Below are positions 22,873 to 39,138 of a stretch of DNA of 40,000 nucleotides, in pieces. How positions within the stretch are numbered: position 1 is the first letter of the stretch; each line of letters begins with the position of its first letter. A model generated the notes under the pieces. The model was not told the DNA's origin, did not search any database, and saw nothing but the letters and a program-made list of their open reading frames with translations. The translations under genes and the position numbers were made by a program. Source of the DNA: an uncultured delta proteobacterium. GTDB taxonomy: Bacteria; Desulfobacterota; BSN033; UBA1163. The stretch is taken from assembly GCA_963826305.1 (NCBI GenBank), contig CAWGWZ010000004.1, positions 123,030 through 163,029 of the forward strand, given 5' to 3'.

Positions 22873-22877
22873 TTTTT
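22846..22877. repeat. Box B copy (overlaps the annotated start of the 719-aa ORF)
   Basis: Plus strand CTGGGGAACGTTGTTCAATTCTTTCACTTTTT. Gene-sense consensus is about GAAAAGTGAAnGAnTnnAACAACGTCCCCnnGG. Confidence 0.8.
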
Positions 22878-22926
22878 TTATTCAGTGGAGATCATAGAGA
22901 AGTCATTCGCCGCAAGACGCGAAGGA

Positions 22927-22975
22927 GGCTCCGGGGTCAAACCTTCAAAATTCAATTTCAATCGTTGGCAGCGTT
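22927..22975. repeat. Box A copy 1
   Basis: GGCTCCGGGGTCAAACCTTCAAAATTCAATTTCAATCGTTGGCAGCGTT, about 55 nt upstream (gene sense) of the 719-aa ORF. Confidence 0.9.
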
Positions 22976-23104
22976 CAGATCCTTAGGATCGTTGATACCG
23001 TTGGAAGAAGCTGAAAGCACAAAGCAGCTTAGTCAATGAGTCATTCAGTTATTAGGTCATTGGGTCAACTATAAGCTCAAAGTTCAAAGCTGAATGCTCA
23101 AAGG
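22976..23104. repeat. Composite short-tandem-repeat block (9-mers ..CGTT, 8-mers GTCATTGR, 7-mers AGCTSAA)
   Basis: ..cagatccttaggatcgttgataccgttggaagaagctgaaagc..agtcaatgagtcattcag..ggtcattgggtcaac..agctcaaagttcaaagctgaatgctcaaagg. Confidence 0.85.
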
Positions 23105-23187
23105 TGGAAGCGTACATGCGTTGAAGCGTTAACATGTCTATAGATCGTAGTGTCATAAGGTATATTGGGTCTATTGCATGGTAAGGC

Positions 23188-23454
23188 TTATTTATAAACA
23201 TCCCCTCTGAAGTCTATTCTTTCAACAGATATTACTCTTTCATTCTTATTCACCTCAAATATTATCCTTAACTTTCCTTTCCTCAGCCTGTAATAGCCTT
23301 CCCAATCTCCTACAAGTTTCTTTAAATCAATATTAACACTGCCCCCTTTCATTTTCATTAAAAACTTCTTTAATTCTTCTCTTACCTCGACGTGAACATC
23401 TTGCCTATCAATAAATTTTTCAGCGTCCCTGGAGTATTCAATTCTCCATTTCAT
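23188..23454 (-). CDS. RelE/ParE-superfamily type II toxin
   Basis: 88 aa: MKWRIEYSRDAEKFIDRQD..LVGDWEGYYRLRKGKLRIIFEVNKNERVISVERIDFRGDVYK. This is the typical RelE/ParE fold pattern. 4-nt overlap with the upstream small gene. Confidence 0.85.
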   Translation of the reverse strand: MKWRIEYSRDAEKFIDRQDVHVEVREELKKFLMKMKGGSVNIDLKKLVGDWEGYYRLRKGKLRIIFEVNKNERVISVERIDFRGDVYK

Positions 23455-23651
23455 ACTTCTACGGTCTCGCTATAAGCTGCTTCTTCTCCTGTCGATGGTT
23501 TACCATATAGCTTCTCAATATCCTCCATCTCCTCCTTAGAAATCGAAGGTATACTTCTCAGAAAGAATTCCAATGTTTCCTCCTCCAAGACTTCCCTTAC
23601 AGCTTTTTTTATAAGACCGTAAAGTTCATTTTTATCAATGATTACTTCCAC
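23451..23651 (-). CDS. Putative antitoxin of the RelE/ParE-like toxin (GTG start)
   Basis: 66-aa acidic ORF directly upstream of and overlapping the toxin, with AGGAG 6-8 nt upstream of the GTG. Assigned by position only. Confidence 0.6.
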   Translation of the reverse strand: MEVIIDKNELYGLIKKAVREVLEEETLEFFLRSIPSISKEEMEDIEKLYGKPSTGEEAAYSETVEV

Positions 23652-23682
23652 TTCTTTTCTCCTTTCGACTATTCATGTAGCT

Positions 23683-23691
23683 ATTATAACA
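23683..23691 (-). promoter_or_regulatory. Extended -10 candidate (TGTTATAAT) for the RelE/ParE cassette
   Basis: Gene sense TGTTATAAT, about 30 nt upstream of GTG 23651 and about 28 nt downstream of Box A copy 2. No good -35. Confidence 0.35.
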
Positions 23692-23718
23692 CAAGTCAAA
23701 ATAAAGATATAGACTAGA

Positions 23719-23765
23719 GACTCCGGGGTCACCTTCAAAATTCAATTTCAATCGTTGGCAGCGTT
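23719..23765. repeat. Box A copy 2
   Basis: GACTCCGGGGTCACCTTCAAAATTCAATTTCAATCGTTGGCAGCGTT, between the vapC stop and the RelE-cassette start. Confidence 0.9.
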
Positions 23766-23800
23766 TGGATCCTTCGCATAGAAGGGAGCTTCGCTGGAAT

Positions 23801-23850
23801 GTCATTGGTTTGTTTGGTTTTCCTGGTTTCTTTGGTTTGTTTAGTTTCTT
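23801..23850. repeat. Nonamer array (NNNNNNGTT family)
   Basis: gtcattggtt tgtttggtt ttcctggtt tctttggtt tgtttagtt. Confidence 0.85.
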
Positions 23851-23878
23851 TTATTAAATGGCGTCAGACAAGACACTT

Positions 23879-24313
23879 TCAACGACTTAATCCGAAATCA
23901 GCCAGTAATCGAATGGAAGGTTTCTGTTTAGTGCTCTTTTTAATTCTTCTATAAAATCTCTTATCTGCTGTTATAAACTCAAAACTTAATTCTTCGGCCA
24001 GCGCAAGATAAGTAGCGTCATAACAGGTTAAATCAAATTCTTTTGCGAATTCAACAGTTTTACCTAACAAAGTAACGGTTGGAGTAATGATTTCTATCCC
24101 CATACCAAATAGCGTGTCCAATGCTTCCTGAATTTCCTCTATCGAAAAACTCGCGTTGTAACGTAAGGCATTTGCAATTTCAAAGAGCAAGAGATCAGGA
24201 ACAACAATCTCTCTTTCTCCAGCATAGAACTCTTCGCGAAGTTTGAGTGCTCGACCGCTGTCCGCTTCATTTACAAACCATTTCAAAACCACGGATGCGT
24301 CTAAAACACTCAT
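23879..24313 (-). CDS. vapC: PIN-domain ribonuclease toxin VapC
   Basis: MSVLDASVVLKWF (first acidic D), ..PDLLLFEIANAL.., ..CYDATYLALAEE.., ..ITADKRF. These are the PIN acidic residues. The track ORF starts at 24355, but Met 24313 gives the classic ATGA overlap with the antitoxin stop. Confidence 0.9.
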   Translation of the reverse strand: MSVLDASVVLKWFVNEADSGRALKLREEFYAGEREIVVPDLLLFEIANALRYNASFSIEEIQEALDTLFGMGIEIITPTVTLLGKTVEFAKEFDLTCYDATYLALAEELSFEFITADKRFYRRIKKSTKQKPSIRLLADFGLSR

Positions 24314-24507
24314 CGAGCCTCTCTCCATTTCCTGATCGTGGAGACACTGTCCCAACCCTTTGGAACGGGATGATTCTCTCTGATCTTATCCTGTGTCTCT
24401 ATGGCAACCTTAATCTTGTCTTTATCCCGTAACCTTGCCCCTATGAGATAACTTATTCGTTTCTCAACAAGGCTCACTTTATCATAGTTATCAATAATCT
24501 TATCCAT
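24310..24507 (-). CDS. VapB-type antitoxin (small, C-terminal ..IRKWREAR)
   Basis: 65-aa ORF overlapping vapC by 4 nt. Assigned by position and size. Confidence 0.65.
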   Translation of the reverse strand: MDKIIDNYDKVSLVEKRISYLIGARLRDKDKIKVAIETQDKIRENHPVPKGWDSVSTIRKWREAR

Positions 24508-24572
24508 TTCTTACCCCCCCCGCTCTTTACCTGGACTTCACCATAACTGCCTTTGGACTAGTTTCTTTTGTT

Positions 24573-24601
24573 ATTTTATCATTTCAGATATTCACTAGCA
24601 A
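24573..24601 (-). promoter_or_regulatory. Sigma70-like promoter candidate for the vapBC cassette
   Basis: Gene sense TTGCTA-N17-TAAAAT (-35 at 24601-24596, -10 at 24578-24573), about 65 nt upstream of ATG 24507 and downstream of Box A copy 3. Confidence 0.45.
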
Positions 24602-24639
24602 CGGAATTATTAAACCAGTTTCGTGCGTTTTTGTTCAGA

Positions 24640-24686
24640 GGCTCCGGGGTCACCTTCAAAATTCAATTTCAATCGTTGGCAGCGTT
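24640..24686. repeat. Box A copy 3
   Basis: GGCTCCGGGGTCACCTTCAAAATTCAATTTCAATCGTTGGCAGCGTT, between the hicA stop and the vapB start. Confidence 0.9.
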
Positions 24687-24775
24687 CAGATCGGTAATAC
24701 CGTTGGAAGAAGCTGAAAGCTCAAAGCTGAAAGCGTTGATCGTAAAGAACGTTTGGATCGTTAACAACCTCTATA
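24687..24775. repeat. Composite 9-mer/7-mer block
   Basis: cagatcggtaataccgttggaagaagctgaaagctcaaagctgaaagcgttgatcgtaaagaacgtttggatcgttaac. Confidence 0.85.
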
Positions 24776-24788
24776 AGCTCGGCTTTGT

Positions 24789-25030
24789 CTACAATTTTCT
24801 CAGGATCTTGACAAACTCCACCTTTGTCAGTCCCATTTGCTCAATGATAGAGAGCAAAGTGCCTCTCGGAATTTCATCTCTATGAGGAATAATGACAAGG
24901 TGGGTCTTCTCCTCCGTCTTCTTTACAAACGCGGAATGGCTTCCCTTGCCCCCTTCGGAGCAGGTTCAAAACCCAAATATCTCAGGATTTTTATGACCTT
25001 TTTTGAAGAAAGTATAGGAAGTTTCGGCAT
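24789..25030 (-). pseudogene. hicA: HicA-family toxin, frameshifted (1 nt short in the G-run near 24943-24945)
   Basis: Hand translation from ATG 25030 gives MPKLPILSSKKVIKILRYLGFEPAPKGAREAIPRL*. Shifting one base restores ..GARGSHSAFVKKTEEKTHLVIIPHRDEIPRGTLLSIIEQMGLTKVEFVKILRKL* (GSH motif), ending at 24789. Confidence 0.75.
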
Positions 25031-25269
25031 TAAAGGACCAGTTCAAAGCTACCAGTAAACTTCTCCCTCACTGTAAGGCTCTCTTCTATGTCTTCCATTA
25101 AGTCCAGTTCTTTGGCGTTCTCAATATAAAGTTCTACTGCCTCTTTGAGATTGGCCACGGCTTCTTCAAATGTATCTCCACAACTGGCCACACCCAACTC
25201 AGGGCATTTAGATACAAAACCCCTTCTTTCTTTCCAGACAACTGCCGTATACTCAAGAATTTTCATCAT
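25030..25269 (-). CDS. hicB: HicB-family antitoxin (UPF0150-like)
   Basis: 79 aa: YTAVVWKERRGFVSKCPELGVASCGDTFEEAVANLKEAVELYIE. Its stop overlaps the hicA ATG by 1 nt. Confidence 0.85.
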   Translation of the reverse strand: MMKILEYTAVVWKERRGFVSKCPELGVASCGDTFEEAVANLKEAVELYIENAKELDLMEDIEESLTVREKFTGSFELVL

Positions 25270-25383
25270 TCACTCCTCTCTTCTCGTCTATAATTCTGCC
25301 AAACTCGTCCGCTTTTAACAAGCCTATCACTGCATCTGCCCATGGGCACGTCGCTGCGAAGCTGGCCCCAGTGCAATATCTAT

Positions 25384-25415
25384 CCGAGGGGACGTTGTTC
25401 ACTCCTTCACTTTTC
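25384..25415. repeat. Box B copy
   Basis: CCGAGGGGACGTTGTTCACTCCTTCACTTTTC, upstream (gene sense) of hicB 25269. Confidence 0.8.
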
Positions 25416-25589
25416 TTCTTTCCGTTGAGAGCGTTGGCCATAAGCTCGAAGCTGAAAGCTCAAAGGTGAGACTTCAAACCCTTTCAAAATCGTTTTGATC
25501 TATACCTCATTGCTTTAGCATTCCCCTAATCGTCCCTTGTTTAAGATCCTTGTTTCCTTAGTCAGGAATTACACTCCCTCTTCCTGTCA

Positions 25590-25622
25590 CTGAGGGGACG
25601 TTGCTTACTTCGTTCACTTTTC
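25590..25622. repeat. Box B copy
   Basis: CTGAGGGGACGTTGCTTACTTCGTTCACTTTTC, in the gene-less junction 25441-25715. Confidence 0.8.
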
Positions 25623-25715
25623 TGATTCCGTTTGGATCGTTGGGATCGTTAAGGACGTTTGGAGCGTAAATACTTAATGTGTTATAGCATGGATCATGGA
25701 AATATCAATATCATC

Positions 25716-25940
25716 TTAGGCATAGGCGAGTCTACCTTTTGGCTGTGGTATTTCTCTTCCCAAACTCAGTGCAGTATCTATCCACTCCGAAATAACAACT
25801 TCCGCATTTTTTATTGCTTCCTCATAGGTCAGTCCATCAGCCATACATCCAGGGAGCTCAGGAACTTCAATGATATACCGACCGTCTTCTTCGCTCCAAA
25901 AAATAATGAGTTCATACTTGTACATTTTAAACTCCTTCAT
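25716..25940 (-). CDS. hicB: HicB-family antitoxin
   Basis: YKYELIIFWSEEDGRYIIEVPELPGCMADGLTYEEAIKNAEVVISEWI. The likely true start is ATG 25925, 1 nt after the hicA stop. Confidence 0.85.
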   Translation of the reverse strand: MKEFKMYKYELIIFWSEEDGRYIIEVPELPGCMADGLTYEEAIKNAEVVISEWIDTALSLGREIPQPKGRLAYA

Positions 25941-26178
25941 GCAGCTTGTATTTAAAGATGATTACTCTAACCTGCTTGACCTGATAAGCTTTTGCTTTTC
26001 CGTCTTTAAGTGGTTGCAAGTTAATAATTTCTTCAATTCCCTCTCGGTAGTGGATATGATGGTCTCCCTTCATTCTTACAGAAAACCCAAAATCGTTCAA
26101 GAGCTTTGTGAGATCTTGAAACCGGATATTTTTATCAGCCAACCCACTAAGAACTCTATTTAACGTTTTCTTATCCAT
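25927..26178 (-). CDS. hicA: HicA-family toxin
   Basis: 83 aa: ..IRFQDLTKLLNDFGFSVRMKGDHHIHYREG..INLQPLKDGKAKAYQVKQV. YcfA/HicA-like pattern, immediately upstream of a hicB. Confidence 0.8.
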   Translation of the reverse strand: MDKKTLNRVLSGLADKNIRFQDLTKLLNDFGFSVRMKGDHHIHYREGIEEIINLQPLKDGKAKAYQVKQVRVIIFKYKLHEGV

Positions 26179-26202
26179 TATTTAATCCAGAAGAAAATAG
26201 AT

Positions 26203-26236
26203 CCAAGGGGACGTTGATGAAAATTGTGACTTTTCC
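26203..26236. repeat. Box B copy
   Basis: CCAAGGGGACGTTGATGAAAATTGTGACTTTTCC, just upstream (gene sense) of hicA 26178. Confidence 0.75.
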
Positions 26237-26277
26237 AAAAGGACCCAAACAGCGGGTCACTAAACCATAACGGGACG

Positions 26278-26311
26278 CCATGGGGAACGTTGTTGAAAAA
26301 TGACACTTTCC
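26278..26311. repeat. Box B copy
   Basis: CCATGGGGAACGTTGTTGAAAAATGACACTTTCC, in tandem with the 26203 copy. Confidence 0.75.
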
Positions 26312-26315
26312 ATCT

Positions 26316-26518
26316 TGGCTTATTGGGTTGATCTGGTTTATTTGGTTTATCTGGTTTAGAGCGTTGAGATCGTTGAGAACATTGGCCATGAGGTGAAAGC
26401 GAAAAGCATCAGAGCGTTGATGCGTAGGAGCGTAAATGCGATAAAACCCTTGATCGTTCGGATCATTGAGATTGTTGAGATCCTTGAGTTCGTTGAAAAC
26501 GTTTTGAACGTTTGGGAT
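26316..26518. repeat. Long degenerate nonamer array (..GTT every 9 nt)
   Basis: tattgggtt gatctggtt tatttggtt tatctggtt tagagcgtt gagatcgtt gagaacatt ... gatcgttcggatcattgagattgttgagatccttgagttcgttgaaaacgttttgaacgtttggg. It generates the spurious ORF 26171..26530 (..LNDLNALNQINQINQIN..). Confidence 0.9.
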
Positions 26519-26567
26519 GAAAATGACCATTCCCTCAAAACCTGAGGGTATAGCGCCTACCGAAAGA

Positions 26568-26798
26568 TTAAAGTCTTTCCCATTCCTCCAAGGGAATCTT
26601 CTTTTTCAGTCCGAGTTCAATTTCCTTGAGAAGCATTTTAATCTGTGGAATGGAATATTCGGTATTATGGGGCAGGGTCAGTGTAAATGTTCCGTAACGC
26701 ATGTAAAAGTGACGCCCGCCAGGTTCGGGTGAACTAAACCCGAGTTTCTTCAATTTCTTTATAAGATCTCTCCGCTTGCATGGTGCCCATCTACCCAT
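26568..26798 (-). CDS. hicA: HicA-family toxin
   Basis: 76 aa: KRRDLIKKLKKLGFSSPEPGGRHFYMRYGTFTLTLPHNTEYSIPQIKMLLKEI. 8-nt overlap with the upstream hicB-like gene. Confidence 0.85.
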   Translation of the reverse strand: MGRWAPCKRRDLIKKLKKLGFSSPEPGGRHFYMRYGTFTLTLPHNTEYSIPQIKMLLKEIELGLKKKIPLEEWERL

Positions 26799-27054
26799 GA
26801 ACGGTTGCCTCAGCGGGAGTAGGCATTTTCTTATTCAGATTGATTCCACCTATGACAGGCAATTTATCCCCATGTCTTATCTTCACAATCAGCCATCCTT
26901 CAAGTACCGACCTTAATTCTTCCTGACACTGATAAAGTGTTTCTCCAAATCCGATAACGCCAGGACATTGGGGAATGTTTCCAGAATAAGTACCATCCTC
27001 TAATTTTTCATACTCTGCTTTACTCATTGCCTTATCGATATATTCAAGAAGCAT
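26791..27054 (-). CDS. hicB: HicB-like antitoxin
   Basis: 87 aa: ..YSGNIPQCPGVIGFGETLYQCQEELRSVLEGWL. AAAGGAGG lies 8 nt upstream of the ATG. Confidence 0.8.
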   Translation of the reverse strand: MLLEYIDKAMSKAEYEKLEDGTYSGNIPQCPGVIGFGETLYQCQEELRSVLEGWLIVKIRHGDKLPVIGGINLNKKMPTPAEATVHG

Positions 27055-27103
27055 ATTGACGCCTCCTTTACCAAACCGTTGGAAGATTCCCCAACTTCAA
27101 TTT

Positions 27104-27112
27104 ATTATAACA
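27104..27112 (-). promoter_or_regulatory. Extended -10 candidate (TGTTATAAT) for the hicBA cassette
   Basis: An identical TGTTATAAT nonamer about 50 nt upstream of ATG 27054, downstream of Box A copy 4 and Box B. Confidence 0.35.
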
Positions 27113-27144
27113 CCTCTCCTCCACGAACCAAAACCCAAGCCGGC

Positions 27145-27178
27145 CCTGGAGGGAGGTAGTTGAATCCTTTCGCTTTTC
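27145..27178. repeat. Box B copy (diverged)
   Basis: CCTGGAGGGAGGTAGTTGAATCCTTTCGCTTTTC, between Box A copy 4 and the hicB promoter-like TGTTATAAT. Confidence 0.6.
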
Positions 27179-27258
27179 TCTTTCCGTTCGGCCCGTTGGG
27201 AACGTTTAGATCGTTAATCTCATTTATTTCGTTGATTTCGTCTACCTCGTCTATCATA
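27179..27258. repeat. Nonamer array
   Basis: tttccgttcggcccgttgggaacgtttagatcgttaatctcatttatttcgttgatttcgtctacctcgtc. It underlies the spurious ORF 27105..27299 (DEINEINEINDLN). Confidence 0.85.
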
Positions 27259-27264
27259 TTCGGA

Positions 27265-27313
27265 GGCTCCGGGGTTAAACCTTCAAAATTCAATTTCAAT
27301 CGTTGGCAGCGTT
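27265..27313. repeat. Box A copy 4
   Basis: GGCTCCGGGGTTAAACCTTCAAAATTCAATTTCAATCGTTGGCAGCGTT, between the DUF5615 stop and the hicB start. Confidence 0.9.
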
Positions 27314-27413
27314 TGGATCGCTAATACCGTTGGAAGAAACTGAAAGCATAAAGCTGAAAGCTCAAAGTGGATTAATAAAGAATGGTTGCTTAGCTCAGAC
27401 ACCTGAGTACAAC

Positions 27414-27767
27414 TTATTTCCAGGTACTCAAATATTCAAGCCGATTTTTCATGTCATGGGAAGTCAGAGAGAAGTATAACCTCATCAGTCTACGCAAAAC
27501 TATTCCTACTGGCAATTGGTCTGAGAGAATGATCCCTCCATGAAATCTTTCTGCGCTCATCCATCCATGATGAATCCGAGCAAAGTGTCGCTTATTATAT
27601 GAGAACAATGATCGTCTGGCTTCGGCTGCAAACATAAGCTGACCGGAATCCGTAAGACCTATATTCCCGGCTTCTTGGGTTGTGAGAACATCAACCCCTC
27701 TTGCTCTTAACGCTTCGGCAAGCGCTAATTGAATATCTTCGTCGAGGTAGAGAGAAATGTTAGCCAA
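27414..27767 (-). CDS. DUF5615-family PIN-like putative toxin
   Basis: 117 aa: ISLYLDEDIQLALAEALRARGVDVLTTQEAG..SDQ. Directly abuts the DUF433 gene with no gap, the usual DUF433/DUF5615 pairing. Confidence 0.8.
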   Translation of the reverse strand: MANISLYLDEDIQLALAEALRARGVDVLTTQEAGNIGLTDSGQLMFAAEARRSLFSYNKRHFARIHHGWMSAERFHGGIILSDQLPVGIVLRRLMRLYFSLTSHDMKNRLEYLSTWK

Positions 27768-28064
27768 TCAGTATCTTCCACCCGGAAAATTCTTTGATAC
27801 AGCCTCTTCTCTATCTCTTTCAAGCTCCCGGTCTATGACTTCTTTATGATCGAAATAATAAGCCAGCGCATCAAAAATCTGCGCCAGACTGAGGTGAGGA
27901 AGTTCCCTCCGAATTTCCTCCGCCGTCAACCCCATAAGATAATACCCAGCTATATTGCCAACCGAAACTCTGGTCCCCTTAATGACCGGACTACCTCCAC
28001 AAATTTCCTTGTTCACCGCTATATGAAAATGATCGGTCGTCTTTCGGCCCAAAGCTCCCTTCAT
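27768..28064 (-). CDS. DUF433-domain protein (putative antitoxin partner)
   Basis: 98 aa: ..EICGGSPVIKGTRVSVGNIAGYYLMGLTAEEIRRELPHLSLAQIFDALAYY, the characteristic DUF433 core. Confidence 0.85.
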   Translation of the reverse strand: MKGALGRKTTDHFHIAVNKEICGGSPVIKGTRVSVGNIAGYYLMGLTAEEIRRELPHLSLAQIFDALAYYFDHKEVIDRELERDREEAVSKNFPGGRY

Positions 28065-28152
28065 AGACCAACTCCTTCTTTCCTTATTTGAATTTTAGGA
28101 TACCATGGATAACCAAGTTAATCAAGTAATGCTCTAATAGTAAATTTCTCGG

Positions 28153-28239
28153 GTAGAGTAGAGAACTGGCGTAGTGGCTAACGCTCTATCTCCAGCTCCC
28201 CCTCGTCAAACCGTACGTTCAGTTTTCCCGAATACGGCT
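28153..28239 (-). ncRNA. Group II intron domains V and VI (ribozyme catalytic core and branch-site helix)
   Basis: On the minus strand, AAGCCGUAUUCGGGAAAACUGAACGUACGGUUU has the AGC triad, a 2-nt bulge and a GAAA-type loop. It is followed by GAGGGGGAGCUGG...CCAGUUCUCUACUCUAC, which forms a stem with a bulged A. Confidence 0.8.
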
Positions 28240-28245
28240 TTCCGA

Positions 28246-29574
28246 TCATCTTCGTACAGAGGCTTTCGCAGTCTGAGTCCATGGAGCAGTGGTTGGCACC
28301 TTGTAAAGATGCAGATTGTCGTAGAGGTACTGATTTGGATACTGACAATAGCCTCTGTTTTTCTTCGCCTGCTTCCGTCTCAGATAGATGCGGACTCTCT
28401 CTTCCAGAAACCGTTTGACCATGGACAGGTTCCGGCTACAGTTCCCATAGTAAAAGTAACCGACCCATCCCCTTACTGCCTCATTCAATTTCTGGATGAT
28501 CACCTCTTTAGGTAACCTAAGTGTTCTCCGACAGGTTAAAGCCTTTATCTCCGCCTGGATCTGCGCCATGGCTTTCTTTGAGGGCCTGATCAAAGGAAAC
28601 TTCTTCCCTGTCCTGGGACTCTTTGCCATTTCCACGGTGAATCCAAGGAAGTCAAACCGCTCCCTCCAGGTGTTCACCACTCTCGTCTTTTCCTCATTTA
28701 GGTTTAGTCCCAGTTTTCCCAATGTGGCTCCGGTCCCCTTCAAGATCCTCTCGGCGTTTCCGCGACACATCACCACGAAATCGTCTGCGTACCGAATCAG
28801 TCTGGCCTCCATCCTCTCCTCAACCTTCTTCGCCTTCCATAATTTGTCCAGTACGTTAAGATAGATGTTGGCCAGCAGCGGTGATATCACTCCTCCCTGC
28901 GGGGTCCCCCTTGGATTCCCTATGGCTCTACTCTTCCCATCCTCTCCCTCTTCGACCACTGGCGCCTTCAACCACCGCTTGATGAGCCGAAGGATATGCT
29001 TGTCCACGACCCGCTTGGCCACTAACGCCAGTAGCTTATCGTGAGGAATGGTATCAAAATATTTCGAGATGTCAGCATCGATTACCTGATTCTTCCCCAT
29101 GCGAAGCTGTAAGGTAAGGTCATCCATCGCCTGATGGGCATCCCGCTTCGGCCTAAACCCATAGGAATTGTCCTCAAAGTCCGCCTCAAAGATCGGTTCG
29201 ATGACGATCTTCACCGCCATCTGCACCACCCGATCCTTAATCGTCGGTATTCCCAAGGGCCTTCGGCTTCCATCCGACTTCGGAATGTTCACCCTCCTCA
29301 CAGGCATCGGCTTATACACCTTCCCCCTTAGTTCCTCTGCCATCTGTTCAAGGTATCTTTCCACTCCCCCTTGTCTCTTCTCTATGCCTTCAAAGCTCTC
29401 CCCGTCTACTCCCGGTGCTCCTTTGTTGGCTCTCACAAGGCGATAAGCGTGACTCAGGATGTCTCGCCGATATACCTTGTCATAGAGAAGATAGAACCGG
29501 TATTCCTTCTCTTGCTTGGCCTTCCGGTATAGTCTCCTCTGAAGTTCCCGAACCTTTTCTGGAGTTTCAAGCAT
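28246..29574 (-). CDS. Group II intron reverse transcriptase/maturase (no D/En domain)
   Basis: 442 aa with [65 protein letters not shown] (YADD), and maturase X region [11 protein letters not shown]. Confidence 0.95.
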
Positions 29575-30087
29575 CCCGCAATCTCCTGGCCCTCCCCTCT
29601 TCAGAAACTGATGAAAGTATTGCCCCTTCCCTCTCCTAAGGTTCTGCTCTCCTTAGGATTCAAACGGTACTCCGGGCAACTCCGACTCCCTCACAGACCG
29701 AGTGAAATTTCGTCTCCTTATATCCACCCGTTGCTCTCCTGTATAGCATCTGAAAGGGCCTCCCGTGCTATCCCACATGACTTCCCCTGCGTGTCACCCC
29801 TGCTACCCCGGAAGTCCATCTGTCGGTTCTGGCAGTTTTCGTTAGGACAGATGTCCCAGCCTTCCCCAAACGTCCAAAGGGTCGGCAACTTCGTTCTCAA
29901 TTACGAGGCTACCTATAGGTTCGCTTGCGCTGCAACCCGCAGGATTGCTCAACTCACTCATTGAGCCTTCGTCAGGGAACTCAATGCTTCGGGTTACCCC
30001 TAACATCTCCCTCCAGCTACATGGGCGAACTGCCCAATTCCCATGGCCGGACTTTAACCGGCAAGTCATGCGTTGTACACGGCATAC

Positions 30088-30112
30088 GGACGGGGTTGAA
30101 TCTTTCCACTTG
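30088..30112. repeat. Box B copy, 5' portion, interrupted by the group II intron
   Basis: Gene sense AAGTGGAAAGATTCAACCCCGTCC|intron. After conceptual splicing to CCGAGAAA (28152 downward) the CGTCCCC core of Box B is restored. Confidence 0.65.
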
Positions 30113-30148
30113 TCTCGTTTATTTTGTCTATCACCCCTGTGAAAGGGA

Positions 30149-30262
30149 GAATGTCAAATGTGAAATGTTGAGAGCGTTGAGCTCGTTAATACCGTTGAGA
30201 CCGTTGAGTTCGTTGGGATCGTTGATTGAGTTTGTTGCATTGATAGCGTTCATCGTGTATAT
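30149..30262. repeat. Heptamer (AATGTNA) then nonamer array, flanking the intron 5' exon
   Basis: gaatgtcaaatgtgaaatgttg agagcgtt gagctcgtt aataccgtt gagaccgtt gagttcgtt gggatcgtt gattgagtt tgttgcatt gatagcgtt. It underlies the spurious ORF 30131..30334. Confidence 0.9.
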
Positions 30263-30370
30263 GCGAAAATGCGTCCAAGCGTCGCTGAGTCGATGATCCA
30301 CTGCGGAATGCAGAATGCGTAACAAAACACTCAAAAAGATGGGATAAATAATCTGGCAACATTCAAGAGG

Positions 30371-30637
30371 TTATACCTTGTAAACATTATCATGATGATC
30401 AAAATCAAGCAGCGTCACTATTTTTCTTTCTACATCGATCTCGTAAACTAAAACAAGGGAACCACTAATATGAACCCTGCGCTTATTTTGTAAGGGTTTT
30501 CTTAACGACTTAAATCGATAAGGATCTTCAAGAATATCTCCCACCTTTCTTTCAATTAACCGAAGCATCTCCTTGTCTTTCTTCTGGAGCTTCTTAAATT
30601 TCTTATCCAGTTTTTCTTTAATAGCAAGTCTATACAC
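30371..30637 (-). CDS. RelE/StbE-family type II toxin (mRNA interferase)
   Basis: 88 aa: ..ILEDPYRFKSLRKPLQNKRRVHISGSLVLVYEIDVERKIVTLLDFDHHDNVYK. 1-nt overlap with the upstream small gene. Confidence 0.85.
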   Translation of the reverse strand: MYRLAIKEKLDKKFKKLQKKDKEMLRLIERKVGDILEDPYRFKSLRKPLQNKRRVHISGSLVLVYEIDVERKIVTLLDFDHHDNVYKV

Positions 30638-30825
30638 TATTTTAAGCCGTATCTTTTGCCGAAGTCTTCAACCATGATTGATTTCTCGAGGTCAATATCT
30701 CGCATCCGTAAAATAAAATCATCGCGCAACTCAGGTTCCTCCATAAGACTTTTTTTGATCTCACCCACGTCCCGCTGCAAATCGACTACCTTTTTATAAA
30801 TGGTTTCCAAAGTAATGCTCTTCAT
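30637..30825 (-). CDS. Putative antitoxin of the RelE-like toxin
   Basis: 62-aa charged helical ORF directly upstream, with GGAGGATGA upstream of the ATG. Assigned by position only. Confidence 0.6.
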   Translation of the reverse strand: MKSITLETIYKKVVDLQRDVGEIKKSLMEEPELRDDFILRMRDIDLEKSIMVEDFGKRYGLK

Positions 30826-30947
30826 CGATTCATCCTCCTATACCCATTCCGTCAGTGTATCGAATATATCCTTTTTAGTGATCTCGGCCATCACTCGCCT
30901 CACTGTGTTGGGCTAATGTACCGCAACTCATCAGGTCTATCCAGTAC

Positions 30948-30980
30948 CTCACGGCACGTTGTTCGCTTCTCCCACTCTTC
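30948..30980. repeat. Box B copy (diverged)
   Basis: CTCACGGCACGTTGTTCGCTTCTCCCACTCTTC, upstream (gene sense) of the 30825 cassette. Confidence 0.55.
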
Positions 30981-31066
30981 TCCGGTTAGATCGTTAAGAT
31001 CGTTGAAACTCCTGGGGGACGGTGCAAATGAAAAATGTACAATGTGAAAGCGGGATAATATTTTGG

Positions 31067-31507
31067 CTATTTTAGGGGATTGATGGTTTCAAACCCTATA
31101 GCACTTACAACATCGCAAAGAATGTCATCGGAAGCTACAAATCTCCAGTCTCTTTCTGCAATCAAGCTAAACGTTCCTATTTGAATCGCATCAAGAGTCC
31201 TCAATCGTTTTGTTTTACCAAATCGCTGCAATAAATCTTCTGCCTCTCCAAGAATGGCGTGCCCCAGAGGTTCAACATTAAAAGAGCGAATCTGTTCTTC
31301 AAATCCAATCATGGCTTTTCGCAACTGTTCCTCATTGATTTCTTGATTCCTTAACCTTCGAAATAGGGTGCTGAGAAATTCAGTCTTAGAAAGTTCTGAA
31401 ATCCAAATTTGATTATCCTCTGAAAGGATGAGATCTGTAACCAGTGGAGATCCTTTTTCTTCATGGAAAAACTTTACAAGGGCTGATGTATCAAAAAATA
31501 GGATCAT
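31067..31507 (-). CDS. vapC: PIN-domain toxin VapC
   Basis: MILFFDTSALVKFF.., ..ISELSKTEFLS.., ..LRTLDAIQIG.., ..VASDDIL. These are the PIN acidic residues. ATGA overlap with the upstream gene. Confidence 0.9.
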   Translation of the reverse strand: MILFFDTSALVKFFHEEKGSPLVTDLILSEDNQIWISELSKTEFLSTLFRRLRNQEINEEQLRKAMIGFEEQIRSFNVEPLGHAILGEAEDLLQRFGKTKRLRTLDAIQIGTFSLIAERDWRFVASDDILCDVVSAIGFETINPLK

Positions 31508-31725
31508 CCTCGGTCCTCTCTAAGAGAGAGAATGTCTTCACTCAACGATCCTTTACATGATTTCAATGCCTCCCGCACTCTGACATAGGGTGGAGTTATT
31601 TCTCCTTTTGTTTTTTTATCCAAATCCCGTTTCAAGGAGAGGATGAGGTCATATACTTTTAAAAGATCATCGGGTTTTAATCCTTCCAGTTCTTTTATGG
31701 TCTTATCTTTCATTTTCATATTCAA
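31504..31725 (-). CDS. Putative VapB-type antitoxin
   Basis: 73-aa ORF overlapping vapC by 4 nt, with GGAGAG upstream of the ATG. Assigned by position. Confidence 0.6.
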   Translation of the reverse strand: MNMKMKDKTIKELEGLKPDDLLKVYDLILSLKRDLDKKTKGEITPPYVRVREALKSCKGSLSEDILSLREDRG

Positions 31726-31850
31726 CTCTCCTAAATTCGATTAGAGACGTACAAATATTCTATCCCATATCCTTAGAATATTGTCAAATTGGTCGGATTT
31801 GTTGCCTATGCTCGTCACACAGAGGACGCTGGCTCTAAAACAACTTGCCT

Positions 31851-32062
31851 CGTTTGAACCGTTAAGAGCGTTCAGGTCGTTTGGAACAAGCTGAAAGTTC
31901 AAAGCTCAAGGCTCAAAGGGGATTAAGGAAATCTGGGAGACCTTGTTGAATTCTTTCGCTATTTTCTTCCTGTTAGAGCCGTTGAGTTCGTTCAGACCCC
32001 TAATACCGTTGGGATCGTTGAGAACGCTAACCGTTTAGGTCGTTCGGATCGGTGCTCGTTAA
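31851..32062. repeat. Composite 9-mer/7-mer blocks flanking a Box B copy
   Basis: cgtttgaaccgttaagagcgttcaggtcgtttggaacaagctgaaagttcaaagctcaaggctcaaagg ... gttagagccgttgagttcgttcagacccctaataccgttgggatcgttgagaacgctaaccgtttaggtcgttcggatcgg. Confidence 0.85.
31933..31966. repeat. Box B copy (diverged)
   Basis: CTGGGAGACCTTGTTGAATTCTTTCGCTATTTTC, between the fcl stop and the first TA cassette. Confidence 0.6.
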
Positions 32063-32085
32063 CTTCATCGGAACATCGCATACCG

Positions 32086-33030
32086 TCATCCGTAGTTTTT
32101 AAGAAAATCTTGATAAGTTAAGCGAAGGCCATCCTTAAGTGAAGTTTTGTACTTCCATCCCATGCCGCGGAGAAATGAAACATCCAGCAGCTTCTGGGGC
32201 ATGCCGTCCGGCTTCGTGGTATCCCACCTTATTTCGGCCTGGTAACCTACCACCTCTGCTACCATTTTAGTCAGTTCACGAATGGTGATGTCCTCACCCG
32301 TGCCAATATTTATAAATTCGTGAGGAATGAGTTGTGAAGCGTCAACTCTTTCCATAAGGAAAACGCAAGCGTCAGCCATATCCTCGCTGTACATGAACTC
32401 CCGCCGGGGGCTGCCAGTGCCCCACGCTTCCACGAATGGACGTCCATCAGTCTTTGCTTCATGGAAACGTCTTATCAAACCAGGTAGGACGTGGGAGTTC
32501 ATGGGGTCATAGTTGTCGTTGGGTCCATAAAGATCGGTTGGCATGACTGACACGAAGTTGGTTCCATATTGACGGTTATACGATTGACATAATTTTATGC
32601 CGGCAATCTTGGCGATTGCATAGGGCTCGTTGGTAGGTTCAAGGGACCCCGAAAGAAGGTATTCCTCTCTCATGGGTTGGGGGGCGAGCCTGGGATAGAT
32701 GCAGGAACTGCCTAGAAACAGCAACTTTTCCACCCCAAACAAGTAGGCACTATGCACTACATTATTCTGAATCATTAAGTTGTTGTAAATAAAGTCAGCA
32801 GGATAGGTGCTGTTGGCATAAATCCCTCCCACCTTGGCCGCAGCCAGAAAGACGTATTCCGGTTTCTCACGCTGGAATAACTCGCTTACGTCTTTCTGAA
32901 TTTCGAGATCTAATTCCTGGTCAGTCCGTAGTATAAAGTTGCCATACCCAAGTGACTGGAGCCTTCGGAGAATGGCGGAGCCAGCCAAACCCATATGACC
33001 AGCTATGTAGATTTTGGAAGATTTGTCCAT
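32086..33030 (-). CDS. fcl: GDP-L-fucose synthase (GDP-4-keto-6-deoxy-D-mannose 3,5-epimerase/4-reductase)
   Basis: 314 aa collinear with E. coli Fcl/WcaG as I remember it: [86 protein letters not shown]. Confidence 0.95.
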
Positions 33031-33034
33031 AGTG

Positions 33035-33056
33035 TTTGAGGTTGGAGGTTAGAGGG
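33035..33056. repeat. Heptamer array (TTNGAGG / CCTCNAA family) between the fcl start and the four-helix-bundle gene stop
   Basis: tttgagg ttggagg ttagagg. Confidence 0.8.
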
Positions 33057-33102
33057 ATCCTATAAAATCCCTAAATGATCGAGGCTTAAGGTCAGAGGTA
33101 AA

Positions 33103-33534
33103 TTATTCCGCCCCTCTTCTGCTACCTCTAAGTGAGTTCATCAAACCGTTAAGTTTTCGGTCAATTTGCTCCCCCCTTGCCCTTACTTCCAAAGAATCTT
33201 CTTCGGAGAATAATTTTTTCCTATGAAAAACTTCATTAAGAGTGATCGTTTCGTAAAGGGAGCCTTGGGATATGCTAAGGAATTGAATAAACTCTTTTTT
33301 ATATTGCCGGCCTTTCCCCTCCGCAATGTTTTGGCACACCGACACAACAGCACCTTCCATCTGGGATACCAAGCGAGCGTGCTTACTTAAGGGGATTGGT
33401 TCAAGCAGTCCTAGGACGTAGTCCGCCATATCAACAGCCATTTGATACACATCGAGCTTTTCAAAGGGAAACACGTAAGTTGATCCAGGATTGAGGGCTG
33501 AGGTTCTTTCTGGAATGGTATTATCTCTTTTCAT
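33103..33534 (-). CDS. Four-helix-bundle protein (23S rRNA intervening-sequence protein family; same fold family as DGR Avd)
   Basis: 143 aa: FEKLDVYQMAVDMADYV.., ..NIAEGKGRQYKKEFIQFLSISQGSLYETITL.., the family signature. Sits between gmd and fcl. Confidence 0.85.
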   Translation of the reverse strand: MKRDNTIPERTSALNPGSTYVFPFEKLDVYQMAVDMADYVLGLLEPIPLSKHARLVSQMEGAVVSVCQNIAEGKGRQYKKEFIQFLSISQGSLYETITLNEVFHRKKLFSEEDSLEVRARGEQIDRKLNGLMNSLRGSRRGAE

Positions 33535-33555
33535 TCAGCTTTCTTCCTCAAACCT

Positions 33556-34680
<1,125 letters not shown>

Positions 34681-34693
34681 ATCAAAACCTCTC

Positions 34694-34890
34694 GGTAATT
34701 GGTAATTAAGTTATTGGGCCATTGGGTCAACTATAAGCTCAAAGCTGAAGGCTCAAGGCTGAAGTTCGGGGCTGAAGGCTCAAAGCGAATAAAACAGTCA
34801 TTAGATCAATAGGTCATTGGGTCAATCGTAGCTCAAGGCTCAAAGCTGAAAGCTCGAAGCTCAAAGTGTAAATGGTCATTGAGTCATTGC
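34694..34890. repeat. About 200-bp spacer made almost entirely of 8-mers (GTCATTGR) and 7-mers (AGCTSAA/GGCTSAA)
   Basis: ggtaattggtaattaagttattgggccattgggtcaactataagctcaaagctgaaggctcaaggctgaag..ggtcattgggtcaatcgtagctcaaggctcaaagctgaaagctcgaagctcaaag..ggtcattgagtcattgc. Confidence 0.9.
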
Positions 34891-34942
34891 GCCGTTACGT
34901 CTCAGACTCGTCAGACCGTGTAAAACATTAAAACCCTATATG

Positions 34943-35194
34943 TCATGATTCGATGTTGCCTTTTTCCAATATTGGCTGGAAGTCTTCCGAGGCCATAATA
35001 TCGTCGATGACAGACTTTCTAAAGGCCTGCCGATCCCCAAGCCTCCTATTCGCCTCTAACACCTCGATGCCTGCCAGATTTCCCTCTTCATCATAGTCTG
35101 CTGAAATCCCTTCTGCAACATGTTTTGTTGTCACGATCGCCTCTCTAAAACGAATATAGAGTGCATCTGCTTCTGGATCATAGGTTATTCTCAT
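34943..35194 (-). CDS. DUF2283-domain protein
   Basis: MRITYDPEADALYIRFRE...ISADYDEEGNLAGIEVLEA, the DUF2283 core. No adjacent partner gene. Confidence 0.8.
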   Translation of the reverse strand: MRITYDPEADALYIRFREAIVTTKHVAEGISADYDEEGNLAGIEVLEANRRLGDRQAFRKSVIDDIMASEDFQPILEKGNIES

Positions 35195-35263
35195 TGGAAC
35201 CTCCTTCGATGACGAACAGATGCTGCTTAAGTGATTAAGGTGTCAGCTCATTGGGTCATTGCG

Positions 35264-36073
35264 TCATTGGGTGTTCGGGGAAACCGATTCGTTTAACTTT
35301 TCCTGGGGGATTTTCGGCTCGCTGCCAACCATCACTCCAAATTCAATCTCCTTGATATGCTCCCTGGATAAGGAAAGAGTTGTCTTTGTAAGAAGAGTGA
35401 TCTTGACCTGTGATTCAGAGATATTCCCTGTCAGTTTGTCACCATATTTAGAATAAAGGCTATCCAACTCTCTCTCTTTTTGAATCTTCCCGGGTGTTCC
35501 AAAAGAAACACGGAGAATATCTTCCTTCTTAAAAGAGAGAGTACCATAGCTCGTTCTGATTGAAACGATTTCATTCAAGAGGTTTCCGATCAGCACATCT
35601 CCATTTCTCAGGACGATCTTATCGACCTCTTTTGAGATGGAATTAAACACCGCATAGGTCTCTTTGACAGATGGCTCTTCTTTCTTTCCCCCTTCCCCAG
35701 CATCTCGAAGCAAAAAGACTTTTTTTATCTTTTCAAAGGGAATCGACCACTGCCCAAAATCCGACCTTCCCTTGAAAGAGAAAAGTTGCCTGACCTGAAA
35801 GGAATCTTTTCCCCCATTCGGTAAGAGAACCTCGACCCAGCAGTTTTGGCCTATCCGCATGATCTCAAAAGAAGAGATATCCTTCCAGTCAAGCGTGGAG
35901 GTCCCCCCTTTCCAATCTACATAGAAATGTTGCCTGCCTTCCATCGAAAAGTCCTTGATCGTTAAGACCTCCCCATCGATTGTCTCAACCCGGGCATTCA
36001 AGGCCAGAACACCATTGAATGGAATAAAGAGTAGAACCAAGATGAGAAGCGTTTGAAAGGGAAGAGATTTCAT
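35264..36073 (-). CDS. Exported protein of unknown function
   Basis: 269 aa with signal-like MKSLPFQTLLILVLLFIPFNGVLA. Internal repeats of a ..G(D)xLxGxL..I.I.T..G.L.F....I..I.F pattern. Confidence 0.65.
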   Translation of the reverse strand: MKSLPFQTLLILVLLFIPFNGVLALNARVETIDGEVLTIKDFSMEGRQHFYVDWKGGTSTLDWKDISSFEIMRIGQNCWVEVLLPNGGKDSFQVRQLFSFKGRSDFGQWSIPFEKIKKVFLLRDAGEGGKKEEPSVKETYAVFNSISKEVDKIVLRNGDVLIGNLLNEIVSIRTSYGTLSFKKEDILRVSFGTPGKIQKERELDSLYSKYGDKLTGNISESQVKITLLTKTTLSLSREHIKEIEFGVMVGSEPKIPQEKLNESVSPNTQ

Positions 36074-36311
36074 AAAAGCTCCTTTGTCATCATTAAGTCA
36101 ATGGATCATTAAAGGCGGAAAGAAGGGCGTATATTAATCTTCTGCGCTAAAGAAGCGAATCAGAGAAGGTATAAAATAAAAGGCAGCAAACAGACCTAAT
36201 AGGATGGCGAAAAATTAATTTCCAGTATTTGCGCCAGAAGTTTTTGAATCGATGTCTGACTCTTCTCGAAAAGAGATTTTTTCTTCTTTTTTATAGCCTG
36301 ACTTGGAGAGT

Positions 36312-36467
36312 GTCATTGAGTCATTGAGTCAATAACAAGCTCAAAGTAAATTAAGCTCAAAGCTGAAAGCTCAAAGCAAAACCCTAAACATAGCTGAAAG
36401 GTCAAAGCTCAAAGCAAAGCGATAAATCCTCAGCTCAAAGCTGAAAGCTAACGAGTCATTGAGTTCA
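36312..36467. repeat. 8-mer/7-mer composite block
   Basis: gtcattgagtcattgagtcaataacaagctcaaag..agctcaaagctgaaagctcaaagc..tagctgaaaggtcaaagctcaaagcaaagc..cagctcaaagctgaaagcta..gtcattgag. Confidence 0.85.
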
Positions 36468-36740
36468 TGACACGGTGATAGAGAGTCTGGAAAAGGGCAG
36501 GCTGACCCCGTGCAAACTTTGGCGATTTCGGCTAAACGTCTTCTTGAATTGTGCCAGATGGCTGGGCAAAATAGCCTTAAACAAAGGAAATAGGTCATTG
36601 TGTCACTAAGTCATTGGTTATTTACAATATAAAATAATTGAATAACCTGATTGTCTGATCACTTAACGATTTATCCGAACTGCTAACTTAATGACTCAAT
36701 AACTCAATAACTCAGTAACCAATCACTTTATTCTCACTCA

Positions 36741-37251
36741 TCAGGCTGCCTTTTTGATCTGCCACTGTGATATCTGGACAGGAACATCCACACCGATCAG
36801 ACTCAGTAGAATCCTGACTCGTCCACTATCCGACATCTTCTTATGAAAAATCCCCACTAGATCCTTCGAGGGACCAGAGGTGATCTGAATCAGATCACCC
36901 TCTTTCCAGTCCTCTTCCAGCTTTATAAGGTTACCCGTTCCCACTCTCTCCCTGATCGCCCCCGACCACTCTTTCAGAAATAGAAACCGGCCCATCTCCC
37001 GCTCCGAGAATTTTACTCACCCCCCTTGTCCACTTCACCTTATCGTAATGAAATTTAATGTCGAGCCTGGCAAAGAGATAGTTTGGAAAGAAGGGTTTAA
37101 TTCTCTGAACCATCTTTCCCTTAGACACTGATAGGTCTGGATCAGCGGAAGAAGGTTTCAATCTCCTGGTTAAAAAGATGGGATTCAACACGATGTTCAT
37201 CCCCTGCCTTGGTCTGGACAACATACCAATCTCTTGAGTTGATTTCGTCAA
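36741..37251 (-). pseudogene. NusG/RfaH-like transcription antiterminator paralog, at least 3 frameshifts
   Basis: The pieces lie in three frames: WYVVQTKAGDEHRVESHLFNQEIETFF (alt frame about 37150-37230), then KGKMVQRIKPFFPNYLFARLD..WTRGVSKILG, then the KOW part AIRERVG..WKEGDLIQITSGPSKDLVGIFHKKMSDSGRVRILLSLIG. One break is at the C5 run 36959-36963. Confidence 0.75.
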
Positions 37252-37261
37252 TAACGTTCAG

Positions 37262-39135: not shown

Positions 39136-39138
39136 AGA

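Follow-up and report, generated by a model that had tools for sequence, protein, structure and literature searches.

How does a group II intron come to lie inside one copy of a short repeated element, and which part of that element does it read? The question is raised by a 40,000-nucleotide (nt) stretch of DNA from an uncultured delta proteobacterium (contig CAWGWZ010000004.1; the whole stretch is called the window below). On its minus strand a complete group II intron interrupts a copy of Box B, an element of about 30 nt that is repeated in the intergenic spaces between toxin-antitoxin (TA) cassettes. Known bacterial group II introns use homing sites in genes or insertion sequences (IS), terminators or attC sites as targets. 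The evidence set out here makes it very probable that this intron reached its site by retrohoming into Box B, and that Box B is the preferred, though not the only, target of the sub-lineage to which it belongs. As a retroelement the intron is ordinary, its multi-copy target is not, and the known mechanism of group II introns stands unchanged. What sets it apart is that it homes into a short intergenic repeat present in many copies, and that its 5' end, GUAUG, is specific to its clade.

Intron boundaries and the occupied Box B copy

The intron spans positions 28153 to 30087 of the window (minus strand; 1935 nt, 5' GUAUGCCGUG ... CUCUAC 3'), a placement backed by Rfam matches and by 27 aligned relatives. 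The latter come from a scan of one genome per species, which returned 79 loci; the 27 closest (65-77% amino acid identity) are hosted by Nitrospirota, Thermodesulfovibrionales, Syntrophales, Chloroflexota and Ca. Scalindua metagenome-assembled genomes (MAGs). When the first 200 and last 130 nt of the intron were compared with the relatives' loci by BLAST, the alignments ran exactly from the first intron nt to the last, and the flanks beyond were unrelated. The intron can therefore be assigned to 28153-30087, and the boundaries first proposed from the sequence, GUAUG...CUCUAC, are upheld. An alternative 5' splice site, GUGUAC at 30080, which the original prediction had left to a structural check, is excluded by the same alignments, since all relatives align from GUAUG at 30087. 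The relatives are 1928-1946 nt long, begin with GTATGCCGTG (rarely GTATGCTGTG) and end, in all cases, with CTCTAC. As read in the window, the junctions are ...gattcaaccccgtcc/GTATGCCGTG...CTCTAC/ccgagaaattt, where the slash, here and below, marks the point of insertion: the 5' exon ends ...TTCAACCCCGTCC, the intron runs from GTATGCC (30087) to CTCTAC (28153), and CCGAGAAA follows as the start of the 3' exon. Ligation of the exons (30088 to 28152, CGUCC-CCGAG) is predicted to give ...UUCAACCCCGUCC/CCGAGAAAUU.

The 5' end does not conform to the GUGYG consensus, as had been remarked from the outset. GUAUG is found here, in 27 of 27 genomic relatives and in at least 120 metagenome copies; it is a conserved variant of the clade and no error. 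It is derived, because a more distant relative, the intron on plasmid 1 of Nitrobacter hamburgensis X14, still begins with canonical GUGCG. In the literature searched, no bacterial group II intron is described as beginning with GUAUG.

Box B has the consensus GAAAAGTGAAAGAATTSAACAACGTCC/CCNRGG and forms a family of direct repeats with eight free copies in the window, all on the minus strand. Three of them carry an exact CGTCC/C: 25384-25416 (last 5'-exon nt 25390; core CAACGTCC/CCTCGG at 25384-25399; target score 9.4), 25590-25622 (last 5'-exon nt 25596; core CAACGTCC/CCTCAG at 25590-25605; 10.8) and 26203-26235 (last 5'-exon nt 26209; core CAACGTCC/CCTTGG at 26203-26218; 9.4). Two more have CGTTC/C, which could still pair with the intron through a G-U wobble: 22845-22877 (last 5'-exon nt 22851; 13.3) and 26275-26309 (last 5'-exon nt 26285; 11.8). 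The other three are degenerate: 27142-27178 (CTACCTCCCTCC), which has lost the CGTCC pentamer, 30951-30980 (AACAACGTGCCGT) and 31928-31964 (CAACAAGGTCTCCC). The occupied copy consists of a left (5') part at 30088-30116 (gagacaagtggaaagattcaaccccgtcc) and a right (3') part at 28145-28152 (CCGAGAAA), likewise on the minus strand. Upstream of the intron, aagtggaaagattcaaccccgtcc matches the Box B consensus preceding CGTCC, AAGTGAAAGAATTCAACAA, at 14 of 19 positions; downstream, CCGAG continues the consensus, and the intron splits the copy at CGTCC/CC. An array of nonamer repeats (30167-30225) lies directly upstream. The claim that the intron sits within a Box B copy is thus borne out. So is the claim that free copies retain the sequence bound by the intron, to which the first 3'-exon nt can now be added, and the array still offers several good targets, three exact and two wobble.

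One could argue that the link with Box B is coincidental: the intron would need only the 6 nt CGTCC/C, and Box B would hold this hexamer for unrelated reasons. The frequency of the bare hexamer in the window lends this view some credit, as CGTCCC occurs at chance (10 found, 10.8 expected). The 16-nt Box B core behaves otherwise, with 4 copies found against 0.15 expected, a number reached in none of 100 shuffles. The sites were also ranked with a target scoring matrix trained on metagenome insertion sites only and then applied to the window. Five free Box B copies scored 9.4-13.3 and the occupied site 6.3, while the CGTCCC sites outside Box B, at 1.8 or less, fell far below true sites; the three free CGTCC/C copies lie above the 99.9th percentile of the window (6.8). 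Evidence from other genomes, given below, bears on the same question.

Box B was also examined for resemblance to known elements. The Box elements gave no match to any RNA family in Rfam, even at E <= 1. A sigma-70 promoter was considered and dropped, hexamer spacing being inconsistent among the copies and the promoter scan at chance. The 9-nt period of the junction repeats might suggest coding for tripeptide repeats; this was rejected on inspection, as the frame varies between Box B copies and periods of 7 and 8 nt occur in the same junctions. At a single copy, GGGACG follows the core CGTCCC (25595-25600) at a distance of 60 nt as its inverted partner (25531-25600, minus strand), and an imperfect inner hairpin, CAGTGACAGGAA...TTCCTGACTAAGG, lies between the two. 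The arrangement was seen at this copy only and is no general feature of Box B.

Recognition of the exons and insertion sites elsewhere

Group II introns contact their targets through exon-binding sites (EBS) that pair with intron-binding sites (IBS) in the exons. Each column of a domain I alignment was scanned against the exon positions, and formal counts were made on an alignment of 23 sequences. For exon positions -1 to -5 the scan selected exactly intron nt 213-217, and for +1 the single column nt 285. The former is EBS1 (GGACG, 29871-29875, minus strand), in the terminal loop of a domain I hairpin, facing IBS1 (CGUCC, 30088-30092), the last 5 nt of the 5' exon; the latter is EBS3 (G29803, within GGGGUAGCAGGGG), facing IBS3 (C28152), the first nt of the 3' exon. 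EBS1 and IBS1 are paired in 97.4% of cases, and at each of the five pairs both partners have changed; EBS3 and IBS3 are paired in 95.7%, as G-C, A-U or U-A. Taking both contacts together, 98.1% of cells are paired (66.1% in shuffles), and the covariation score of 0.773 (0.162 in shuffles) was not reached in any of 500 shuffles. Sliding the partners by 1-3 columns reduces pairing to 36-57%. Covariation thus shows the target to be read by a 5-bp EBS1-IBS1 helix (GGACG with CGUCC) and one EBS3-IBS3 pair (G with C), and the EBS1 assigned in the original prediction is the right one.

The family provides a natural retargeting series, in which no fewer than eight different IBS1 sequences occur, each with an EBS1 to match. 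The loops and the corresponding 5' exon ends are GGACG with cgtcc, GGTCA with tgacc, CCTAC with gtagg, CACAG with ctgtg, AATGG with ccatt, TCTAC with gtaga, CCGAC with gtcgg and AATAC with gtatt. EBS1 and EBS3 are thereby fixed for a large and little-characterised environmental clade that extends over Nitrospirota, Syntrophales, Chloroflexota and anammox bacteria. One locus (L028), a 3812-nt element in a Nitrospiraceae MAG, has an insertion of about 1.9 kb, a truncated reverse transcriptase (RT) match and exons that mismatch its own EBS1 and EBS3, and is probably degenerate or nested.

A metagenome scan for CGTCC joined to the intron 5' end returned at least 120 stretches, and clustering on the distal flank left 86 independent sites among the matches listed. 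Within this set, 31 of the 86 match the Box B consensus at 11 or more of 19 positions, against 1 of 86 in a distal-flank control, and 11 match it at 16 or more. The exon region from -6 to -24 carries information (AA.TT.AA..WWTT.AAsAA-CGTCC); an A at -10, for instance, is found in 68 of the 86. Proteins 90-92% identical to the intron-encoded protein (IEP) were traced to five contigs, L080-L084, with the junctions tcaaCAACGTCC/intron/CCCC.., tcaaCAACGTCC/intron/CCTCC.. and taaCTACGTCC/intron in differing surroundings. Four of these close copies (L080-L082 and L084), each on a different contig, occupy the same position of Box B, and in L082 nonamer repeats and a ParE-like cassette stand upstream of the intron. 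Nonamer arrays like that of the window precede further sites of the sub-lineage (L091, L146, L188), and others share a longer element. Free Box B copies are present in the flanks of metagenome contigs too, L145 having five free and one occupied. Independent copies on other contigs thus sit at the same point of Box B-like sequences, which supports the original proposal that Box B is a homing site of the lineage.

These data also bear on the coincidence argument. In its favour, many sites of the sub-lineage are not Box B, and a Nitrospirota MAG (MFD03726.bin.1.47, loci L007-L010) carries one identical intron sequence at four sites whose common part is only ctgtg/ag, two of them also sharing a tctggtgcgga motif. 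The latter case shows that very little sequence is required for members of the family to spread. A requirement for six nt alone would nevertheless leave unaccounted for the excess of Box B matches over controls, the information between -6 and -24 and the four close copies at one Box B position, and we regard a coincidental link as very unlikely.

Is the distal part of the 5' exon read by the intron RNA? The original prediction had an EBS2 in GGGTTG (29933-29938, minus strand), and this assignment fails. The hexamer is complementary to exon positions -11 to -6 (6/6) in the window only, and at none of 47 sites of the sub-lineage. It lies in the invariant hairpin loop CUGC-GGGUY-GCAG, inside the conserved D1-D4 core of Rfam, and does not track the exon: whatever the exon, the 28 family members have GGGTTG (18), GGGTCG (9) or GGGCCG (1). 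The caution that complements this short can arise by chance was therefore justified for the EBS2 candidate, not for EBS1. In a column-by-column search for complementarity, no alignment column covaried with exon -6 to -15. The only EBS2-like candidate is a variable A/U-rich domain I loop, GUAAUUGAGAACG (29892-29904, minus strand; intron nt 184-196), which could pair UUGAG with UUCAA at exon -13 to -9; in a permutation test, the result was borderline within the sub-lineage (5/500) and null in a diverse set (139/500). Recognition of the distal 5' exon is usual in homing-site introns (PMC4424553, PMC4075523). From its conservation in the 86 independent sites among the matches listed, the A/T-rich region from -6 to -24 may be read here by the IEP or by a weak EBS2-like contact.

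Several points weigh against Box B homing as formulated above. The equivocal EBS2-like contact is one. A second is that about two thirds of the sub-lineage sites among the matches listed are not clear Box B. Copies in unrelated targets had been named beforehand as an argument against the idea, and they do occur in this proportion; yet the same sites still share a degenerate A/T-rich motif extending to -24, so that the objection holds in part. Box B is a preferred or an abundant target, not an obligatory one. Moreover, part of the enrichment could reflect the commonness of Box B in the host genomes, and the metagenome contigs are unassignable to genomes, the independence of the sites resting on distal-flank clustering alone.

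Other branches of the family have targets of their own. A sister sub-lineage with a 6-nt EBS1, GGACGG (L004, L100, L122, L132, L144, L154, L158, L168 and L202), inserts repeatedly at (a/t)a(a/t)TAGAACCGTCC/C, in flanks that are otherwise unrelated; this makes another conserved target, different from Box B. Another sub-lineage, with AAUGG or AGUGG as EBS1 (L018, L020, L023 and L026, from three Syntrophaceae MAGs and one contig binned as Methanosarcina), is found at gaattgaagattaccatt/tg. Its target is conserved over about 18 nt and includes an AATTGAA motif reminiscent of Box B.

Class of the intron, known systems and mobility

The RNA has the parts expected of a group II intron. The domain I core (29925-30064, minus strand, like the features that follow) matches RF02003, group-II-D1D4-4 (87.3 bits, E = 5e-18), and domains V and VI together (28153-28242) match RF00029 with 46 bits (gathering score 40). 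Domain V (28208-28240; AAGCCGUAUUCGG-GAAAA-CUGAACGUACGGUUU; fold z = -4.1) has an AGC triad and folds as a canonical 34-nt hairpin with the expected helix and 2-nt bulge. Domain VI (28153-28205) has a predicted 10-bp helix of GGGGAGCUGG with CCAGUUCUCU and, beside it, a candidate branch-point A (28159) at -7 from the 3' end of an intron that ends in AC. Domain V and the A at -7, both part of the original prediction, are thus retained; the bulge itself is read from the sequence (GAG and CUC around the A) and is absent from the minimum-free-energy fold.

The IEP is encoded at 28246-29574 (minus strand; 442 amino acids (aa); Pfam RVT_1, 6.9e-40, and GIIM, 5.5e-11). Its open reading frame (ORF; intron nt 514-1842) follows the D1-D3 region and precedes domain V, which is the position of domain IV. 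The YADD motif is intact (codons at 28780-28791), and the protein aligns over its full length with more than 100 homologues. Pfam detects no DNA-binding/endonuclease (D/En) domain in the IEP, which stops about 35 aa past the maturase domain. An exact-protein look-up found no record of the identical sequence elsewhere.

The intron most likely belongs to an endonuclease-less lineage with IIB-like RNA, related to class F; this class-F-like assignment is based on similarity to a single reference intron (49% identity), not on a phylogeny. The reference is the closest cultured relative, the N. hamburgensis X14 plasmid 1 intron (49% aa identity over 95% of the protein), whose domain I scores 102 bits with RF02003 against 87 bits here. 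Bradyrhizobium and Nitrobacter introns align to the IEP with 49-50% identity and 365-375 bits. The plasmid copy is presumably one of the introns named Ni.ha. Bacterial class F (g3-type) introns such as Ni.ha.I1/I2 are among the closest known systems (Simon et al. 2008; Toro and Martinez-Abarca 2013). With the class F Ni.ha introns, the intron of the window shares an RT/maturase lacking the D/En region, an IIB-like RNA with EBS1 in a terminal loop of domain I and a single-nt EBS3, and the Rfam domain I family RF02003. It differs from them in its GUAUG 5' end, where the Nitrobacter intron has canonical GUGCG, and in having a multi-copy intergenic repeat as target. Ni.ha.I1 and Ni.ha.I2 of N. hamburgensis are placed in class F (group g3) by Toro and Martinez-Abarca (2013), who describe the class as endonuclease-less with an IIB-type RNA (PMC3552965).

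A quite different reading would make the intron a class C member (IIC or IIC-attC) that recognises a DNA hairpin together with a very short IBS1, Box B being an attC-like site. Among solved structures, class C RTs are indeed the best matches of the IEP (E. rectale 217 bits and GsI-IIC 205, followed by T.el4h with 173 and LtrA with 149); the comparison lacks classes D, E and F, which are absent from the Protein Data Bank, and does not discriminate among them. The Bradyrhizobium and Nitrobacter introns far outscore the class C RTs, and share the RF02003 domain I. An IEP without an endonuclease domain and the lack of EBS2 covariation also speak for class C, and a co-oriented array of TA cassettes with conserved repeats is a setting from which IIC-attC introns are known (PMC4424553, PMC7923331). 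The predicted hairpin, on the other hand, is not there. Positions -45 to -1 of the 5' exon fold with a mean z of +0.18 (87 sites among the matches listed; 2% with z < -2), the same as control flanks, and Box B has no consistent inverted repeats, so that a IIC-type hairpin target was ruled out. Domain V (AAGCCGUAU...) has an AGC and not a CGC triad, the EBS1-IBS1 helix is 5 bp and not 3-4, and the insertion is at CGTCC/C in co-orientation with the cassettes, not at TTGT/T of R'' and antisense to them as with IIC-attC introns (PMC7923331). Membership of class C is accordingly a most improbable reading.

IIC and IIC-attC introns such as S.ma.I2, which insert after terminators or into attC, also use a repeated non-coding target between cassettes, have a short IBS1, an IBS3, no demonstrable EBS2 and no endonuclease domain, and are hosted by TA-cassette arrays (PMC4424553, PMC7923331). 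They differ in the features just given: the target here is a linear motif without hairpin, the AGC triad and the 5-bp EBS1 go with a large IIB-like domain I, and the intron is sense to the cassettes. RmInt1 of Sinorhizobium meliloti (class D; target ISRm2011-2) resembles the present intron in its endonuclease-less IEP, in a homing site that is defined by its sequence and occurs many times per genome, in its EBS1 and EBS3 pairings and in its reliance on the lagging-strand template of the replication fork, which would be expected here (PMC8914252, PMC4075523). In contrast, RmInt1 has an IEP of another class and a clear EBS2-IBS2 pairing, whereas none can be demonstrated here, and its target belongs to the transposase gene of a mobile element and not to a short non-coding repeat. 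UHB.I2 and H.ha.F1/F2 (IIB, CL1 and class E), from integron and CALIN (integrase-lacking attC cluster) arrays of halophiles, are likewise non-IIC introns in TA-rich arrays, and UHB.I2 is co-oriented with the cassettes and has a non-canonical 5' end (PMC7923331). Their arrays have recognisable attC sites, unlike the one described here, and they have not been shown to home repeatedly into one element, as 31 of 86 sites (among the matches listed) suggest for this sub-lineage. An endonuclease-less, non-IIC lineage that draws its targets from a short multi-copy intergenic repeat offers a clean natural example of target choice, and such a target permits spread within a genome without gene disruption.

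Under Box B homing, retrohoming would have placed the intron into one of the Box B copies. In the absence of an endonuclease, priming of cDNA synthesis from the replication fork would be expected, for which RmInt1 is the precedent (PMC8914252). Reverse splicing would then use the template of the lagging strand. Over its entire length the window shows a negative GC skew on the plus strand; the strand that holds the intron is the G-rich one, in agreement with this scheme, although uniform gene orientation confounds the skew.

The intron is full-length and, judging by its parts, probably still mobile. Somewhat at odds with this, only one intron copy is present in the 40 kb even though five good targets are free. 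One could therefore envision an immobile, fixed remnant, inserted long ago, for which the free Box B copies are no present-day targets. The same insertion recurs in an ENA contig, L205, that is 98.7% identical to the window and has the same intron at the same site, and the exact protein is not on record elsewhere. Exact-protein look-ups with the RT, DUF433 and ParE-like proteins found no empty-site allele of this locus, and the sole related contig recovered in that search likewise carries the intron. A remnant would hardly be expected, though, to keep a full-length ORF, the YADD motif, intact domains V and VI and intact EBS1 and EBS3 that match the exons. The lineage is, moreover, very abundant, IEPs 90-92% identical are found at other sites, and contigs typically break at the intron ends, the signature of a multi-copy repeat. 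L205 itself ends inside the intron, as is typical of such repeats in assemblies. The chances of a fixed remnant appear slim indeed.

The cassette array and its surroundings

The downstream DUF433/DUF5615 cassette (27414-28064, minus strand; Pfam) is co-oriented with the intron, with the DUF433 ATG 88 nt after the intron end. On the upstream side, a co-oriented cassette of a 62-aa protein and a ParE-like protein (30371-30825, minus strand; Pfam) ends 284 nt before the intron at the ParE-like stop codon; the same pair precedes the intron in L082 and L205. The position of the intron, intergenic and in cassette orientation, leads one to expect co-transcription and splicing. In the metagenome loci listed, most insertions are intergenic, and the intron runs in the direction of the longest ORF upstream in 51 cases and against it in 24.

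The original prediction inferred from this arrangement that expression of the downstream cassette would depend on splicing. The inference is not supported. The intron interrupts no ORF, and the DUF433 gene keeps its own strong Shine-Dalgarno sequence; because the intron is intergenic and the ribosome-binding site is retained, the cassette should be decoded without splicing, and an unspliced read-through transcript would still encode it. A structured insert of 1.9 kb may have polar effects on the cassette. A promoter-like sequence, TTAACT-18-TAAAAT, lies between the intron and the ATG (28121-28092), in a scan that was overall at chance level.

Box B is one of several modules in the TA-cassette junctions of the window (22700-40000, minus strand). 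The others are octamers (GGTCATTG), heptamers (AGCTCAA or AGCTGAA, 28 copies), nonamers (GATCGTTGA, 17 copies) and Box A (ACCTTCAAAATTCAATTTCAATCGTTGGCAGCGTT, at 22941, 23731, 24652 and 27279). An unrelated metagenome contig, L145, has the same junction modules at 90-97% identity, and its cassette genes differ. In several genomes Box B is conserved and stands apart in function; as an independent marker of this repeat, the intron may help to explain the junction repeats of TA cassettes. It is tempting to speculate that the modules constitute an undescribed, integron-like cassette system without attC hairpins, on whose junction element the intron lineage has specialised much as IIC-attC introns have on attC, an idea we consider unlikely on present analysis. 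Were it correct, the intron could aid the capture or shuffling of cassettes, either because its copies recombine with each other or because it joins Box B to new genes. A conventional attC/integron interpretation of Box B was rejected: the junctions of the window contain no consistent inverted repeats of the attC type, and no integrase is found among the window ORFs scanned.

The window as a whole is a minus-strand polysaccharide biosynthesis locus, with genes for glycosyltransferases, Wzy, a flippase, AsnB, methyltransferases and a GDP-fucose-synthase-like epimerase (Pfam and ORF scan). The TA cassettes (HicAB, ParE-like, PIN and DUF433/DUF5615) and junction repeats are interleaved with these in its upstream half, 22.8-39.9 kb. 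A NusG-family paralogue (about 36741-37251, minus strand) is placed upstream in the same co-directional locus; it is split into two ORFs in the window and is 179 aa long in L205 (5754-6293). Its presence suggests processive antitermination through the cluster of about 37 kb, including TA cassettes, repeats and intron. Wzy (37284-37868) also differs between the two assemblies, with 194 aa in the window and 510 aa in L205. A GDP-mannose-dehydratase-like gene (33556-34680, minus strand) consists of three separate ORFs of 78, 145 and 112 aa, in L205 as well as in the window; it is likely to be a real pseudogene and not an assembly error. Finally, two genes for four-helix-bundle proteins of family PF05635 ("23S rRNA intervening sequence protein") lie within the locus, at 33103-33534 (minus strand) in the window and at 563-955 in L205.

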